From a virus (lineage: Duplodnaviria; Heunggongvirae; Uroviricota; Caudoviricetes): a stretch of DNA of 42,671 bases. The DNA is taken from the IMG/VR virus record IMGVR_UViG_2529293144_000007; one strand, given 5' to 3'. The notes under the pieces were generated by a model. It was not told where the DNA came from. It did not search any database and saw nothing but the letters and a program-made list of their open reading frames with translations. Below are positions 2,891 through 38,674 of the stretch, in pieces. Numbering within the stretch: the stretch's first letter is position 1; each line of letters opens with the position of its first letter. A program made the position numbers and the translations under genes.

Positions 2891-6291
<3,401 letters not shown>

Positions 6292-22013: not shown

Positions 22014-22481
22014 TCATCGAAGGCATTGCGTCCTGATGTATTCCTGAAGCGTTCTCAGTGCTGTTTGGTCGCTGATGATTCCGTCCCGGATACCGAGAAC
22101 GTTTCGTCCAGCAACTGGAGAGAGTTCGACGGTGGCATCATTGCCCATGCCGGAGGCGCTGGAGGTTTCGGCTGAGGATGGCACAGGGCATTTTCCTTTG
22201 ACGAACACCCGACCACCATTATCAAGCTTGCGCCGAAGAGCATCATTTTCAGCTTTCGCATCAGCTAACTCCTTCGTGTATTTAGCATCGAGTGCATCAG
22301 CAGAACGCTGGCGCTGCTGCATGTCAGTAATGGTGGCGGTCGCCTGCTTCAGCTCACTGACTTTTTTATCTCGCTGTTCTTTGTAGGCGATGGCGTTATC
22401 ACGGTAATGATTGACCGCCCACGACAGGCAGACGATGATGCAGATAACCAGAGCGGAGATAATCGCGGTTACTCTGCTCAT
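22014..22481 (-). CDS. Rz: i-spanin Rz
   Basis: Start ATG overlaps the endolysin stop (ATGA); N-terminal TM helix ([20 protein letters not shown]) then coiled coil. Confidence 0.85.
22055..22261 (-). CDS. Rz1: o-spanin Rz1, embedded in Rz in the +1 frame
   Basis: Lipobox LIMVVGC and proline-rich mature region, fully nested in Rz. Confidence 0.75.
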
Positions 22482-22975
22482 TGTTGCCCCCACAAACAGA
22501 CTTCACGCTCAATCTCACGACGAGTCATCAGGCCTTTCCATTGCTTACCGCCAGCGTATGTCCAGCGACGTAGCTGGTCACATGCGCCTTTGATATCGCC
22601 CTGGTTTATTTTGCGAAGAAGCGTCGATGTTCTGAAATTGCCAGCACCCACGTTGTAGACGAACGAGTAAAGTGCGCCGCGCGTTGTTTCCGGTATATCG
22701 ACTTTGATGTACGGGTTAATTTGTCTGGCGACCGTGGCAAGGTCTTTATTCAGGAGGGCTTTGCATTCTGCTTCGGTATACGTTTTACCGAGCATGATGT
22801 CTTTTCCGGTGTGTCCGTGACATACAGTCCATACGCCAACGATATCTTTGTATGGTATGTAGCTGACACCTTCCAGGCCATCGTCACCACTTGGGCCAGT
22901 GATTAACACTGATGCTATAGCAATTGCTCCGCCACCAATAGCAGCAGCAACTGCTTTTCGTAATGATGGAGGCAT
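22478..22975 (-). CDS. SAR endolysin (lysozyme, phage 21 R-type)
   Basis: 165 aa with N-terminal Gly/Ala-rich SAR segment ([20 protein letters not shown]) and lysozyme core. Confidence 0.85.
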
Positions 22976-23190
22976 TATTCACCTCTCGCAGCCTTGCGCT
23001 TATCTTCTTTAATCTTGAAATAAAGGTTTGTCAGGTACGTCAGCAGGCCAAATACCAGGCTACCCAGCACACCTATTGCTGCCCACTGTGAGGGCGTGAC
23101 TTTATCGAGCAGCTGTAAAAACCAGTAACCGGCACTACCTGCTGAGGTGCCATAGGCGACACCCGTTGTTAACTTATCCATGGATTTCAT
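22975..23190 (-). CDS. pinholin (phage 21 S21-type holin)
   Basis: 71 aa, two TM segments; near-identical in pattern to S21 as recalled (MKSMDK...[15 protein letters not shown]). Confidence 0.85.
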
Positions 23191-23256: not shown

Positions 23257-24309
23257 TTATTTCCCCACCAGCTCGTTTATCTCTTTCACTGTCTGGTTAA
23301 ACCGCTCTGACTCAAGCTCAACACCTAAGGCCCGACGCCCCAGCGCCATTGCTGCTTTTATTGTGGAACCGGATCCCATAAAAAAATCAGCAACCAGATC
23401 ACCAGGTCGACTACTGGCATTGATTATTTGCCTGAGCATATCCGCCGGTTTCTCACACGGATGTTTACCCGGGTAGAACTGAACGGGTTTATGCATCCAG
23501 ACATCGGTATAAGGCACGGAGACTGATACGGAGAAATAGCGCCGGAGAGATTTAAACTCATCCAGCAATTCAGAATATTTGCGATTCAGTGAATCATAAG
23601 ATGCCACCAGCTGGTGGTGTGGTTGTTCCAGTTGTTGTTCCTGAAACTTCTCTGCCGCTATACGGGAAAACAGTGCCTGTAACTTCCGATAGTCAGCCTC
23701 ATTCGGCAACTGCCACTGACTGGCACCAAACCAGTGGGAAACCATATTTTTCTTACCTGTGGCTTCGGCAATTTGTTTTGCCGTTATACCCAGTTCGGCA
23801 CGAGCATCCCTGAAATACGATATCAGCGGTGCCATTATGTGCTGTTTGAGTTCCCTTTCTTTTGCCGCATAGCCGTCACTTTTGCCGCGATATGGCCCCT
23901 GGTAATGTTCAGCAAACAGAACGCGCTCTGTGGCAGGAAAATATGCGCGCAGACTTTCTTTATTACACCCATTCCAACGTCCGGACGGCTTCGCCCAGAT
24001 GATATGGTTAAGCACGTTGAAACGTTCACGCATCATGATCTCAATATCAGATGCCAGGCGATGCCCACAGAACAGGTAAAGGCTTCCGGCAGGTTTCAAC
24101 ACCCGCCAGAACTGGGCCAGACAGTGGTCCAGCCACTTAAGGTAATCTTCGTCCCCTTTCCACTGATTGTCCCAACCGTTGGGTTTCACCTTGAAGTAAG
24201 GCGGATCGGTAACAATCAGGTCAATGGAATCATCAGGCAGGGACTGAATAAAATGCAGGCAATCAGCGTTGATTAAATCAACACTGTTTATTTTTACAGT
24301 GTTTTTCAT
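23257..24309 (-). CDS. DNA methyltransferase, beta-class (N6-adenine or N4-cytosine)
   Basis: DPPY motif near the N-terminus and FxGSGST SAM-binding motif near the C-terminus. Confidence 0.85.
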   Translation of the reverse strand: MKNTVKINSVDLINADCLHFIQSLPDDSIDLIVTDPPYFKVKPNGWDNQWKGDEDYLKWLDHCLAQFWRVLKPAGSLYLFCGHRLASDIEIMMRERFNVLNHIIWAKPSGRWNGCNKESLRAYFPATERVLFAEHYQGPYRGKSDGYAAKERELKQHIMAPLISYFRDARAELGITAKQIAEATGKKNMVSHWFGASQWQLPNEADYRKLQALFSRIAAEKFQEQQLEQPHHQLVASYDSLNRKYSELLDEFKSLRRYFSVSVSVPYTDVWMHKPVQFYPGKHPCEKPADMLRQIINASSRPGDLVADFFMGSGSTIKAAMALGRRALGVELESERFNQTVKEINELVGK

Positions 24310-24459
24310 GGATCAGTAAGCGTAACTCTGGTAGGCTCACTCTGCTTTTGCGCTAAAGCAGTGGGCCGTGGTTCGCTTGTGACCAGTAAGCATGAGCGAA
24401 TGGCTGGCAGGTGCTACCAACACCCACCAGCCGCCCATTTTCACAGCAGGAAACCGCCA

Positions 24460-24687
24460 TTACTGGCAGCGTCTGAATTTATTCCCGTACCCGCCGTTAT
24501 CCTTCGCCAGACCCGCCAGAACTAACTGAGTCAGTATTAACTGGCACCGGGCTTCGCTTACTCCGGTAGTTCTCGTCATCATGCGTGGCGTTACCCACTT
24601 GTCAGCAGGTAAGAAATGAAGGACTGCGGCGGCGGTTTCTGTCATATCTTGCTGTTTTAGCATGTCTTTTTCCCTTCTGGTTAACAT
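24460..24687 (-). CDS. small hypothetical protein, possibly DNA-binding
   Basis: 75-aa ORF between Q and the methyltransferase; basic C-terminus. Confidence 0.4.
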   Translation of the reverse strand: MLTRREKDMLKQQDMTETAAAVLHFLPADKWVTPRMMTRTTGVSEARCQLILTQLVLAGLAKDNGGYGNKFRRCQ

Positions 24688-24785: not shown

Positions 24786-24810
24786 AAAAAAACCGCTCAG
24801 CGGCGGGTTT
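24786..24810 (-). terminator. candidate intrinsic terminator (possible tR'-like)
   Basis: Minus-strand CCGC-TGA-GCGG hairpin followed by TTTTTTT; stem is short. Confidence 0.45.
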
Positions 24811-24933
24811 AAGTTATGTGGCGAAGTAACCACTCTTAACAGCATATTTGATTTTTTACGATTGTAAACGGTTGATTATTCATCTCCAATAAAAATAATT
24901 GTGTGGGTATGCCCTTAACAATGGATAAGAAAC

Positions 24934-25380
24934 ATGAATAAAATGACTGTACTATTACTTAGCGCAACTATCATTTCAGGTTGTACTTCTTCCGTACCAT
25001 TAATAAAGAAAACTCAATCAGGAAAACCTGAGGGGGTTTATCAAAATACGACAAAAGATAAAGTCAAAGATGCTCTTGTGAATTACTGCAATAGTAGAGG
25101 GTTGATAATTTACAACGCGGATAACAGCAGTGTTATATGTGGTAAAGAACTGGAAGGCGGCTCTGCTGTTTTTGGACAAATGTTAATCGGCAATGCCTAT
25201 TCAACAACCCCGGTATCAAAAGTCAGATTTACTATCGCTCAACTTAATAACGATACAAAAGTGTGGGCCGATATGTGGATGGAAACTCAAATGGCAATGG
25301 GGCAAGTACAACAAATGGCTATAACAGACAACGCAAGCAAAAACACTATCCAACAACGTCTTGATGAATTAAAACCTTAA
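24934..25380 (+). CDS. lipoprotein moron, function unknown
   Basis: 148 aa with signal peptide and lipobox (LLLSATIISGC); AT-rich; opposite strand to the late genes. Confidence 0.75.
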   Translation: MNKMTVLLLSATIISGCTSSVPLIKKTQSGKPEGVYQNTTKDKVKDALVNYCNSRGLIIYNADNSSVICGKELEGGSAVFGQMLIGNAYSTTPVSKVRFTIAQLNNDTKVWADMWMETQMAMGQVQQMAITDNASKNTIQQRLDELKP

Positions 25381-25400
25381 GTAAATTAATTAAATAAAAT

Positions 25401-25422
25401 GGGGAGAATAAATCGACTCCCC
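25401..25422. terminator. hairpin between the lipoprotein gene and Q, candidate terminator (T-rich flank on minus strand)
   Basis: GGGGAG-10 nt loop-CTCCCC; minus-strand side followed by ATTTTATTTAATT. Confidence 0.4.
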
Positions 25423-25464
25423 ACACATTAAACTGATTCAATTACCCCCTCAATAAGAGGTCTT

Positions 25465-25830
25465 CTAACGATCCATCTCTAGCTCAATTTCTAACATCAT
25501 TAACATGCCATCAACTACACCTTCAGCCTTTTGCAATAAACGCCCAACCCAGCAATCAGAACGCCCATGTTTACGGGCAAGCGCCATAAACGTCATACCA
25601 CCTACATAATAATCCACTAATAAATCGTGCAAATCGCTGTTGTTCTTTTTCAGGCGAGCCATGCACCCACAAATGATCATCGCGTCATCGTCACAACATT
25701 GCGGGCGGGATTTTACTTTTGAAGGGATTAGTCCTTTAAATCCTGCAGCAATAGACGACCAGGTGACATCCTCGTGATTATTTGCCACCCATGCACCCCA
25801 ACGTTCAAGAACCATTTGAATATCACGCAT
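25465..25830 (-). CDS. late-gene antitermination protein Q (phage 82 / QuuD-like)
   Basis: Sequence from [34 protein letters not shown] with Cys cluster ([12 protein letters not shown]), matching the recalled Q82/QuuD family. Confidence 0.85.
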
Positions 25831-25847
25831 CAACTTTCTCCACAAAA

Positions 25848-35053: not shown

Positions 35054-35260
35054 ATGCTGAACCTCGATTGTGTTCCAATCTCAACTTATTGCAAAGAAAC
35101 TGGCGAAACTCCTGAAGCAATAAACAAACGTGTACAGCGCGGTGTTTGGCGTGAAGGTGTTCAGGTTTTAAAGGTTGAAGGCGTTAAGGAGAGGTGGATT
35201 GATCTTAGTGAGGTTGCAAAATGGGCCAGACAAAACTGCTCAAACTACCGCGCGGCGTAA
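35054..35260 (+). CDS. excisionase-like DNA-binding protein (putative Xis)
   Basis: Small basic protein immediately upstream of and overlapping int; start at MLNLD with GGAGAAA RBS. Confidence 0.55.
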   Translation: MLNLDCVPISTYCKETGETPEAINKRVQRGVWREGVQVLKVEGVKERWIDLSEVAKWARQNCSNYRAA

Positions 35261-36396
35261 CAATCAGGAAACACCGCCAGGGCGAAACGATCAATATAAC
35301 TTTCACCTACAAAGGAGTTAAATGTCGTGAGCCTCTTTCCAATCTGGAAGTAACACCAAAGAACATTAAATACGCCGAGCGCACACTCGGCGAAATTCAT
35401 AATAAGATCGAAAGGGGAACATTCATTTATGCGGAATATTTTCCCCGTTCTGCTCGTTTGAAAATTTTTGGTAATGCTGTTGCAGGCAAAACGGTAAAAA
35501 TGTACCTGGACGAATACCTTGAAATCTGCGAAACGAGAAAACTCTCACCCTCAACGATTGGTGGTTATAAAAAATGCCGTAGTGCGTTAGCCTCACTCCA
35601 CATTTGCCCTGCAAGTGAATTAACACCAGCAATCCTGAAAGCGTGGATTCAAAGCCAGAAAACGACCTTAAAAACAATTCGCAACCAGTTATCTTTCCTG
35701 CGGTCAGCACTTGATGAAGCCGTAACCGATGGGGTACTTCAAATTAACCCCGTATCGTTGGTAACTGCTTCGCGCTACCAAAGTGATAAGTCAGAAGCAG
35801 AAAGCAGCTACGTGGTTGATCCGCTATCACCAGCAGAAGTTGATGCATTACTAGCAGCAGCCGGAAACAAACAATGGGAAAATCTGTTCCGGTTCGCCAT
35901 ACATACAGGCCTGCGTAGTTCTGAATTATGTGCCCTTCGTTGGCGTGATATCGATTTTGTAGGGAAAACTGCCCACGTTCAGAACGCCAGTGTAGTTGGC
36001 GTAATCAAGGGGACAAAAACAAAAGCCGGTACACGAAAAGTTGAACTGAATGAGGAAGCAATGGCAGCTCTGACAAATCAGAAACCGTTCACGTTCATGA
36101 AGGACGCTACTGTCTTTGAAGATCCAAAAACCAATAAGCCGTGGGCAAGTGCTGATGCAATTAGAAAAAAAGCATGGGTCCCGACATTGAGAAAGGCAGG
36201 TATTCGATACAGAAACCCATATCAGACTAGGCATACATTCGCCACCAGCCATATCAGCCGGGGAACAAACCTTTTCTGGCTTGCAGCTCAAATGGGGCAT
36301 AAAGGGCCAGAGATGCTTTTTAGACACTATGGTCGGTATTTGAAGGAATATGACAACAATACATCTTTAAATAAATTGAAAACAATTAATAAATAG
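35221..36396 (+). CDS. tyrosine integrase (lambda Int family)
   Basis: 391 aa with N-terminal arm-binding-like region and C-terminal catalytic signature (RHTFAT ... HKGPEMLFRHYGRY). Confidence 0.9.
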   Translation: MGQTKLLKLPRGVTIRKHRQGETINITFTYKGVKCREPLSNLEVTPKNIKYAERTLGEIHNKIERGTFIYAEYFPRSARLKIFGNAVAGKTVKMYLDEYLEICETRKLSPSTIGGYKKCRSALASLHICPASELTPAILKAWIQSQKTTLKTIRNQLSFLRSALDEAVTDGVLQINPVSLVTASRYQSDKSEAESSYVVDPLSPAEVDALLAAAGNKQWENLFRFAIHTGLRSSELCALRWRDIDFVGKTAHVQNASVVGVIKGTKTKAGTRKVELNEEAMAALTNQKPFTFMKDATVFEDPKTNKPWASADAIRKKAWVPTLRKAGIRYRNPYQTRHTFATSHISRGTNLFWLAAQMGHKGPEMLFRHYGRYLKEYDNNTSLNKLKTINK

Positions 36397-37347: not shown

Positions 37348-37444
37348 ACGTCTATTGTCGTCCAGTGAGAATTGCTGAGAACTACGAGTTATGGCACCCT
37401 GAATGGGACCCACTAAGAAGGGTCCAAAAACCGAGGGTCCCAAA

Positions 37445-38674
37445 ATGGCAAAAATCGCTAAGAAGCTCACTGACACTGAAATCAAAAGCACCAAGCCAGC
37501 CGATAAAGAAATCAACTTGTTTGACGGTGATGGTCTGATTCTACGAATCGCTCCTTTGGCGAAAGGAGGCAAGAAAAATTGGTATTTCAGGTATGCAGTA
37601 CCAGTGAGCAAGAAAAGAACCAAAATGAGCCTTGGGACATATCCTCACCTTACCCTTGCAAGAGCCAGAGCCTTACGTGATGAATATCTCTCCTTTCTGG
37701 CAAATGGTGTTGATCCCCAAATCCATAACAACGATAAGGCGAAGGCATTAAAGAGTGCTACTGAGCACACTCTCCAAGCCGTAGCGCGGAAATGGTTAGA
37801 TGAGAAGGTAAAGACATCAGGTATCTCACAAGACCATGCAGCAGACATCTGGCGCAGCTTAGAGAGAAATGTCTTTCCCGGTCTGGGTAATGTCCCTATC
37901 AATGAGATCCGACCTAAGCTCTTAAAACAACACCTTGATCCTATTGAGCAACGAGGCGTATTGGAAACTCTACGCCGTATCATTTCACGTCTGAATGAAA
38001 TCTTCCGGTGGGCAGCTACTGAAGAACTTATTGAGTTCAACCCGGCTGACAACCTTGGTCAAAGATTCAGTAAACCAAAAAAGCAAAATATGCCTGCCCT
38101 TCCCCCAAGCGAATTGCCAAGGTTTATGGAATCTTTGACGAATGCGTCAATCCGGTTGGAAACACGTATGCTAATTGAATGGCAATTGTTGACATGGGTT
38201 CGTCCGGGTGAAGCCGTTCGCGCAAGGTGGTCTGATATTGATACAACCAACAGCATTTGGAACATTCCTGCTGATTTCATGAAAATGAAAAAGCTTCACA
38301 AAGTTCCTTTGAGTAAAGAAGCTTTGCGCATCCTTGAATTAATGAAATCAATAAGTGGGCATAGAGAATGGGTTTTCCCCAGCATAAAAGCGCCTCTTAA
38401 TCATATGCATGAACAAACAGCCAACGCAGCTATCATCCGAATGGGGTTCGGAGGCGAGCTTGTAGCTCACGGTATGCGTTCTATTGCACGAACAGCGGCA
38501 GAGGAGTCTGGTAAATTCAGAGCTGAAGTTCTTGAGGCAGCGCTTGCCCACTCGAAAAAAGATGAAATTATCGCAGCATACAATCGTGCAGAATATCTGA
38601 TAGAGCGACAGAGTTTGATGCAATGGTGGAGTGATTACGTTCAAGCTCAAAGATCAAATGCTCTGGTAGCCTAA
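37445..38674 (+). CDS. P4-type tyrosine integrase (IntA-like)
   Basis: N-terminus MAKIAKKLTDTEIKSTKPADKEINLFDGDGL typical of P4/CP4-57 integrases; C-terminal catalytic region (HGMRSIARTAA). Confidence 0.85.
   Translation: MAKIAKKLTDTEIKSTKPADKEINLFDGDGLILRIAPLAKGGKKNWYFRYAVPVSKKRTKMSLGTYPHLTLARARALRDEYLSFLANGVDPQIHNNDKAKALKSATEHTLQAVARKWLDEKVKTSGISQDHAADIWRSLERNVFPGLGNVPINEIRPKLLKQHLDPIEQRGVLETLRRIISRLNEIFRWAATEELIEFNPADNLGQRFSKPKKQNMPALPPSELPRFMESLTNASIRLETRMLIEWQLLTWVRPGEAVRARWSDIDTTNSIWNIPADFMKMKKLHKVPLSKEALRILELMKSISGHREWVFPSIKAPLNHMHEQTANAAIIRMGFGGELVAHGMRSIARTAAEESGKFRAEVLEAALAHSKKDEIIAAYNRAEYLIERQSLMQWWSDYVQAQRSNALVA

Follow-up and report, generated by a model that had tools for sequence, protein, structure and literature searches.

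The window, a stretch of 42,671 nucleotides, is a lambda-like prophage close to Escherichia phage PhiR40_1, with which it shares 87-98% nucleotide identity over most of its length. The rightward early and late genes of this prophage read on the minus strand. Between the antiterminator gene Q and the late operon lies a gene on the plus strand, so that it runs, as had been predicted, in reverse orientation to Q and the lysis genes. It encodes a 148-aa lipoprotein with an ATG start, whose N-terminus is MNKMTVLLLSATIISGC... The features of the locus are collected in Table 1.

Table 1. Coordinates in the window of the lipoprotein gene and the features around it, with the basis of each assignment.
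Feature	Position	Strand	Basis
Lysozyme	22975..22478	-	domain search
P21-type holin	23190..22975	-	domain search
N6/N4 DNA methyltransferase (350 aa) in the late operon	24309..23257	-	domain search
75-aa ORF, PHROG 331, first downstream of tR'	24687..24460	-	ORF list, PHROG match
tR', putative intrinsic terminator of the short pR' leader	24786..24810	-	scan; alignment with VT1-Sakai
Putative late promoter pR', TTTACA-16-TATGCT	24868..24841	-	promoter scan; alignment with VT1-Sakai
Acquired low-GC cassette, approximate extent	24869..25464	.	pR' -35 hexamer to Q stop codon
Candidate sigma-70 promoter of the lipoprotein gene, TTGATT-16-AATAAT	24872..24899	+	consensus match only, 9/12
Lipoprotein gene (148 aa + stop)	24934..25380	+	ORF list, PHROG 3152, alignments, AF2, pN/pS
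Predicted signal peptide with lipobox I-I-S-G-C	24934..24984	+	read from sequence; +2 = Thr
Hairpin between the 3' ends of the converging Q and lipoprotein genes	25403..25422	.	folding, sequence
Q antiterminator, Q21/933W family	25845..25465	-	PF06530 E 2e-51; BLASTP

The signal peptide of the lipoprotein consists of a basic n-region, a hydrophobic h-region and a lipobox (MNKMTVLLLSATI-ISGC) that matches the pattern [LVI][ASTVI][GAS]C and places cleavage at IISG-C17. The predicted mature protein would thus start at Cys17 (codon 24982..24984) and comprise 132 residues. In alignments of 21 and of 32 homologues Cys17 is invariant and the lipobox is kept, in agreement with the original prediction of a 148-aa lipoprotein with the lipobox IISGC. 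In E. coli, lipoproteins that lack Asp at position +2 are transferred to the outer membrane by the Lol pathway. The window protein has Thr at this position and the A1 homologues have Ala, Thr or Val; because none of them has Asp, sorting to the outer membrane is predicted. We infer on these sequence grounds that the lipoprotein probably resides there.

An AlphaFold2 model, computed with the 21-sequence alignment as input, has a mean pLDDT of 85 and a pTM of 0.75. In it, a tether of about 14 residues links the lipobox Cys to a domain with the topology beta-alpha-beta-beta-alpha-beta-beta-beta-alpha. In this model the mature domain is predicted to be of an alpha/beta type that may resemble KA1, BamC-domain or helix-grip folds, at approximately 10% identity to the matches in that class. 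Foldseek searches of the model returned nothing at E <= 0.001 from either the PDB or BFVD, and a profile search of PDB sequences yielded no meaningful match. For the window protein and 32 diverse relatives, no model in Pfam, NCBIfam or PADLOC covers the domain; the matches were below threshold or at the level of the signal peptide. Among the PADLOC defence profiles the window protein picked up just PbeC, as a partial match (E 0.0065, 13 bits). A literature search with the protein accession and the UTI89 locus tags found no paper that mentions the protein.

The lipoprotein matches the PHROG 3152 profile over its full length (residues 1-148 on 1-148, E 2e-104), a family that carries no annotated function in the database. 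Homologues at 48-72% identity occur in other Enterobacterales; the full-length ones from a word-indexed search, at 50-72% identity, belong to Salmonella, Jejubacter, Citrobacter, Enterobacter, Phytobacter, Xenorhabdus, Photorhabdus, Arsenophonus and Morganella. With an exhaustive profile search we retrieved 823 cluster representatives at E <= 1e-3, of which 408 remain at E <= 1e-10; the PHROG 3152 class has at least 823 clusters at 50% identity. Every full-length member that we inspected keeps Cys17, Cys52 and Cys69. Family members have the motifs SGKPE, IGNxYSTTP and KVWADxWxETQMxxGQ in common, and an alignment of homologues at 49-98% identity contains 25 invariant columns. The family is widespread and mostly phage-borne, without a curated model or a dedicated study.

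Two other identities were considered and rejected. The UniRef name "VirB7" on a Xenorhabdus homologue was taken for a label based on the lipobox, and no T4SS context was seen at the other loci inspected. Matches to PHROG spanins, which might point to an Rz1-type o-spanin, are at E ~0.03 and span only residues 1-45, the signal peptide; the gene also lies about 2.5 kb from the lysis cassette and on the other strand. The window protein belongs to PHROG 3152 and not to the Bor, Cor, Llp or Rz1 families.

The gene is under purifying selection. The 51 E. coli-type copies fall into 15 alleles with 10 synonymous and 9 non-synonymous variable codons, giving a pN/pS of approximately 0.24, and all 51 are intact, with no internal stops. 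The original prediction counted on conservation, and the profile match, the homologues at 48-72% identity and this ratio together bear it out.

A separate observation concerns the codons for the SGKPE motif, which at 25018..25031 of the window form a 5-bp palindrome, TCNGG-NNNN-CCN'GA. It is present in 11 of 22 distinct nucleotide versions, compared with a chance expectation of 25%, a count that is uncorrected for phylogeny. All four complementary N/N' combinations occur. The palindrome may be due to chance, or it may be a small RNA or DNA hairpin under selection.

We compared the region with the Stx phage VT1-Sakai. By BLASTP the window Q is 80% identical to VT1-Sakai Q but ends short of its last ~23 residues, the part that in VT1-Sakai overlaps pR'. 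On the minus strand, 24868..24786 is collinear with the VT1-Sakai annotations "putative late promoter" (TTTACG-16-TATCAT), "putative Q-utilization" and "rho-independent terminator for pR' transcript". Both pR' and tR' of the window, the latter at 24804..24792, were also picked up independently by a promoter and terminator scan. The promoter is followed by a conserved leader, GTTAAGAGTGGTTACTTCGCCACA, and the tR' hairpin itself (24792..24806) has a 5-bp GC stem and then T7 on the minus strand.

The same element recurs widely, with the minus-strand segment 24885..24780 matching 356 phage records, and the annotations of SfV and Ayreon also mark tR' as a terminator. The part that holds the promoter and leader co-varies with the type of Q. 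Four phages with a QuuD-type Q carry it, namely a DLP12-like prophage, mEp460_4F5, the cdtI phage and 569R4. SfV and Ayreon, whose Q has 250 aa, contain other sequence in its stead, but they still share the terminator and the DNA beyond it.

A pR' within the 84 bp between Q and the lipoprotein gene was considered and rejected: no promoter-like site scores there in a consensus scan, and the counterpart of the VT1-Sakai pR'/qut/tR' is at 24868..24786. From this alignment, the lipoprotein gene lies between Q and pR' and is divergent from pR'. With pR' located on its late side and pointing in the other direction, the gene is not antisense to Q-dependent late transcription, and the original prediction fails on this point. 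Only early, pR-derived transcripts that read through Q and the hairpin behind it could be antisense to the gene.

This arrangement also changes how the flanking hairpins are read. The gene had been described as flanked by hairpins at 25401..25422 and 24786..24810, and both exist, but neither seems to be its own terminator. The hairpin at 24786..24810 is upstream of the lipoprotein ORF and belongs to the leader of the late operon, as tR'. The other one, at 25403..25422, has a stem of 7-8 bp, and its plus-strand RNA folds at -11.2 kcal/mol (z -1.9). A U-rich tail is found on the minus (Q) strand only; on the plus strand the stem has no U-tract. This hairpin is best read, from its sequence, as a probable terminator of the early transcript after Q; a second possible role is to protect the lipoprotein mRNA at its 3' end.

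The candidate promoter of the lipoprotein gene would give a leader of about 28 nt. Its -35 hexamer (24872..24877) stands back to back with that of pR' (24868..24863), 3 bp apart, and the Shine-Dalgarno sequence of the ORF is weak. An alignment of the upstream regions of nine homologues showed no common promoter sequence. Promoter signals were sought at three homologous copies, two of which have no detectable promoter of their own. The third, in Citrobacter, is closely preceded by a promoter-like TTGATT-17-TATTAT and closely followed by a strong intrinsic terminator.

Beyond tR', the first genes of the late operon are the PHROG 331 ORF and the methyltransferase (23257..24687), not the holin. 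SfV, Ayreon, the cdtI phage and UTI89 have this pair at the corresponding position, and PHROG 331 has no function assigned in the database. Given its place after tR', the methyltransferase would be a Q-dependent late gene. Within the lysis cassette, the lysozyme (22478..22975) is approximately 33% identical to that of PhiR40_1, with the holin, Rz and flanking genes at 95-100%; the divergence of the lysozyme is a mosaic swap inside the cassette.

Two further features of the window were seen away from the locus. The tail-tip host-specificity gene J is split on the minus strand, giving one ORF at 6288..3613 (891 aa) and another that overlaps it at 3640..2891 (249 aa). In PhiR40_1, J is one ORF of 1232 aa, and its C-terminal part is just 64% identical to the window J. 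The split at 2891..6288 may reflect a mosaic junction, an error in sequencing, or a frameshift or pseudogene. At the opposite end of the window, a second integrase (37403..38674) adjoins the prophage integrase (35221..36396), and the segment 35221..42671 also holds two genes, one with Response_reg_2 (PF19192) and one with HEF_HK and HATPase domains (PF19191, PF02518). Possibly, this segment is an integrated island of its own that includes a defence-like module of two genes.

Several properties mark the lipoprotein gene as an acquisition. GC content drops to a trough of 0.33-0.39 at the gene, compared with ~0.50 in its flanks. Homology to related QuuD/933W-type Q genes ends at about 25471, at the Q stop codon, and homology to the late-promoter regions of other phages begins at about 24869. 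Among 50,697 phage records, tblastn found the protein encoded in two, PhiR40_1 and PhiR55_1, even though the flanking DNA is common. The atypical GC content, the presence or absence of the gene among related phages and the different positions of its homologues confirm that it is a moron, as first proposed. These comparisons show that a single-gene cassette was horizontally acquired into a lambda-like prophage of E. coli.

As a 654-bp unit, the cassette is present in 188 of 5426 complete E. coli genomes (3.5%), always on the chromosome, and its carriers include the extraintestinal pathogenic strain UTI89 and avian isolates. Every context of the E. coli allele that we inspected is the slot between Q and pR'. 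In all 50 IMG/VR contigs that contain the E. coli-type allele with its flanks, the same Q adjoins it and the orientation is the same. On the other side, these contigs have the PHROG 331 ORF wherever they reach far enough, usually followed by the methylase and a holin.

Other phages use the same slot for other genes. In the DLP12-like prophage and phage 434 it holds the nmpC porin gene, which is reverse-oriented and accompanied by a likewise shortened Q. Reverse-oriented membrane genes of other kinds occupy it in the cdtI phage, mEp460_4F5 and 569R4, examples being the multi-pass membrane orf53 together with orf54 in the cdtI phage and a 308-aa ORF in mEp460_4F5. We considered cdtI orf53 as a possible relative on account of its equal size and slot and rejected it, as its product is a multi-pass membrane protein. 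Envelope morons thus have an established home in this slot, between pR' and a Q of the Q21/933W type that is shortened at its C-terminus. In position and orientation, the closest analogue of the window gene is lc/nmpC of PA-2, DLP12 and 434. It has exactly the same slot, between a truncated QuuD-type Q and the conserved pR'-leader-tR', the same reverse orientation and an outer-membrane protein as its product, as is predicted for the lipoprotein, but this product is a beta-barrel porin rather than a lipoprotein and its sequence is unrelated.

A different layout was observed in Ayreon (L002, 2581..3298), where an unrelated, forward-oriented lipoprotein gene (MKKVLIAAIGFCLVGC...) lies downstream of the 250-aa Q. 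A copy of the terminator AACCCGCCACTGAGCGGGTTTTTT stands on either side of it, an arrangement that looks as though the cassette came in by duplication of tR' or by recombination at tR'.

Diverged homologues are found in a different setting. We examined 26 loci on viral contigs with alleles at 40-70% identity and found 23 of them inside tail or tail-tip gene clusters, co-oriented with the cluster. The junctions hit there are V/G-H, H-M, M-L and K-I. Placement in tail clusters is also seen in genomes of Salmonella, Citrobacter, Morganella, Photorhabdus and Haemophilus: between K and I in Salmonella, Morganella and several viral contigs, and between H, the tape-measure gene, and M in Citrobacter, Haemophilus, Photorhabdus and several viral contigs. 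Further diverged alleles lie between M and L or upstream of H. Elsewhere, the Phytobacter homologue is in an early region between recA-like and lexA-like genes, one homologue sits in a P1-like element, and others are near terminase genes in Halomonas prophages. Almost all of the contexts that we inspected are prophages or phage contigs.

The tail-tip cluster of phi80 provides a second example of a lipoprotein moron in such a place. Its morF (L118, 2105..2638), between I and J, encodes a lipoprotein with the lipobox FISGC that is unrelated to the window protein, and phi80 has this gene in addition to cor.

If the lipoprotein blocked the receptor of its own carrier, it might be expected to vary together with the receptor-binding end of J. 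Across carriers we found no co-variation between the lipoprotein and the C-terminal 300 aa of J (Spearman 0.19), a rank correlation no higher than shared ancestry would give. For example, two carriers (L110 and L112) have lipoproteins that are 100% identical and C-terminal 300 residues of J that score 27 out of 100 (identity x coverage). On the same measure, the lipoproteins of PhiR40_1 and another carrier (L004) score 72 and their J ends 7. This lack of co-variation argues against a Cor- or Llp-type blocker of the carrier's own receptor.

Considering these results together, the reading that we favor, at a probability of roughly 0.4, is that the gene encodes a periplasm-facing outer-membrane lipoprotein that the prophage expresses to block phage entry, that is, a superinfection exclusion factor. 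Signal peptidase II would process the protein and Lol would sort it to the inner leaflet of the outer membrane, where a Cys52-Cys69 disulfide would stabilise it. In the lysogen, the gene's own candidate sigma-70 promoter would drive it, with pR repressed and nothing converging on it. From the periplasmic face of the outer membrane, the lipoprotein would then interfere with infection by other phages. Its target would be a step or a host component common to many siphophages, such as tail-tip penetration or DNA entry; because the protein does not track the receptor-binding end of J, a shared step is more probable than the primary receptor of the carrier itself.

Favoring exclusion are the conserved lipoprotein features, the hallmarks of a moron, purifying selection and the position of the gene relative to pR', along with the linkage of diverged alleles to phage entry machinery, 23 of 26 being in tail or tail-tip clusters. 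There are also precedents in T5 Llp, in the lipoprotein genes of the mEpimmI phages and in nmpC at the Q-pR' slot. Against exclusion, the protein resembles none of the characterised exclusion lipoproteins in sequence or structure and has no PADLOC match, and in the window the gene is not beside tail genes. The bias toward the tail module may be no more than a sign of where insertions are tolerated, the promoter call is only a consensus match, and the C-terminal PDZ, BamD-like TPR or SHOCT extensions of some distant relatives suggest a more general role in periplasmic binding.

In likely mode of action, the closest analogues would be Llp, Cor and the mEpimmI Lpp proteins. An outer-membrane lipoprotein on the periplasmic side with a disulfide bond, T5 Llp is encoded beside the gene of the receptor-binding protein and blocks FhuA allosterically (PMC9586334). 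Like llp and the FhuA-blocking cor of phi80, N15 and T1, the homologues of the moron are usually within or beside tail or receptor-binding genes. The window gene differs from both in lying beside Q rather than tail genes, in showing no matching to the receptor-binding end of J and in the size of its mature product, 132 aa compared with ~60 aa. Its protein has no sequence similarity to Cor (E 9); Llp gave no match among PDB sequences and is absent from the best fold matches listed.

The mEpimmI coliphages, which are temperate siphophages, carry lipoprotein genes as morons inside their tail or structural cluster (mEp021 gp81 and mEp010 gp116), and expression of these genes leads to phage exclusion (PMC11893012). 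If those genomes are among the 50,697 records, where the only tblastn matches were PhiR40_1 and PhiR55_1, the Lpp proteins are no homologues of the window protein.

HK97 gp15 is an inner-membrane protein and not a lipoprotein. Cumby et al. are said to have described it in 2012 as an exclusion moron within structural/tail genes.

The original prediction had likened the gene to those for Bor, Cor and Llp, and proposed a comparison with known exclusion lipoproteins by homology and structure. The likeness to bor in position is fair, and the comparison did reveal a conserved family; kinship with Bor, Cor or Llp in sequence or fold, by contrast, is absent. Like lambda bor and iss, the window gene is a lipoprotein moron opposite the late operon and near the lysis cassette. 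It differs in being located between Q and pR', where bor is downstream of Rz, and in its product, since Bor has 97 aa and no sequence similarity to the window protein (BLASTP E 0.31 over 40 residues).

The resemblance to bor raises an alternative in which the lipoprotein is a host-fitness or virulence factor like lambda Bor or Iss and confers resistance to serum, complement, bile or envelope stress, with no action on phages. Its reverse orientation adjoining the lysis cassette, its predicted arrival at the outer membrane and its 188 carrier genomes, with extraintestinal pathogens such as UTI89 and avian isolates among them, would all fit such a role. However, serum resistance would be meaningless for the homologues in insect, nematode and environmental bacteria (Photorhabdus, Xenorhabdus, Arsenophonus and Halomonas), the strong bias toward tail-tip clusters is left unexplained and the similarity to Bor is lacking. 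We therefore regard this role as improbable.

A lytic-cycle helper seems no better a candidate. Here the lipoprotein would be made late, by read-through of the tail operon, and would mask entry sites on lysing cells and their debris, which would spare the progeny. T5 Llp, a "lytic conversion" protein, sets a precedent (PMC9586334), and most homologues are indeed co-oriented within late tail operons, with two of the three checked having no detectable promoter of their own. The window gene, however, is outside the early and late units and opposite to them, so late read-through could not express it, and the absence of co-variation with the J end speaks against masking of the phage's own receptor.

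We give similarly low odds to a general periplasmic lipoprotein that binds a ligand or protein, has a helix-grip or BamC-like fold, serves outer-membrane homeostasis and travels with phages as a passenger, affecting phages and virulence little or not at all. Against it, nearly all of the inspected contexts are prophages or phage contigs, and the fold matches are at ~10% identity, with nothing from Foldseek at E <= 0.001. Finally, a decaying or unexpressed passenger ORF without function, for which the weak Shine-Dalgarno sequence and a promoter that is only a consensus match might be cited, is very hard to reconcile with 51 of 51 intact copies, a pN/pS of ~0.24, 25 invariant columns and a confident fold prediction.

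Returning to superinfection exclusion, a bolder version of it would extend to the whole family. PHROG 3152 would then be a widespread class of outer-membrane lipoproteins that exclude siphophages independently of the primary receptor, a generalisation that we consider doubtful. Such a protein would jam a conserved step, either penetration by the tail tip or passage of the tape measure and DNA, from the periplasmic face. This would explain why the gene has inserted repeatedly at H-M-L-K-I-J junctions without tracking the receptor-binding domain of J.

One of the main ways in which temperate phages alter the phage sensitivity and virulence of their hosts is through prophage morons for envelope proteins. 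The gene described here is an ordinary kind of phage accessory gene with a protein family that has never been studied, most likely a prophage-expressed envelope or phage-exclusion factor. That family is conserved and common, with homologues in many prophages inside and outside Enterobacterales, but it has drawn neither a curated model nor a study. The corrected map, with a moron in the nmpC slot, should be useful for annotating late regions of the Q21/933W type, including those of Stx phages. Should the lipoprotein exclude phages irrespective of their J end, this would indicate a target after adsorption that is common to lambda-like phages, and such a target would matter for predicting host range in phage therapy.
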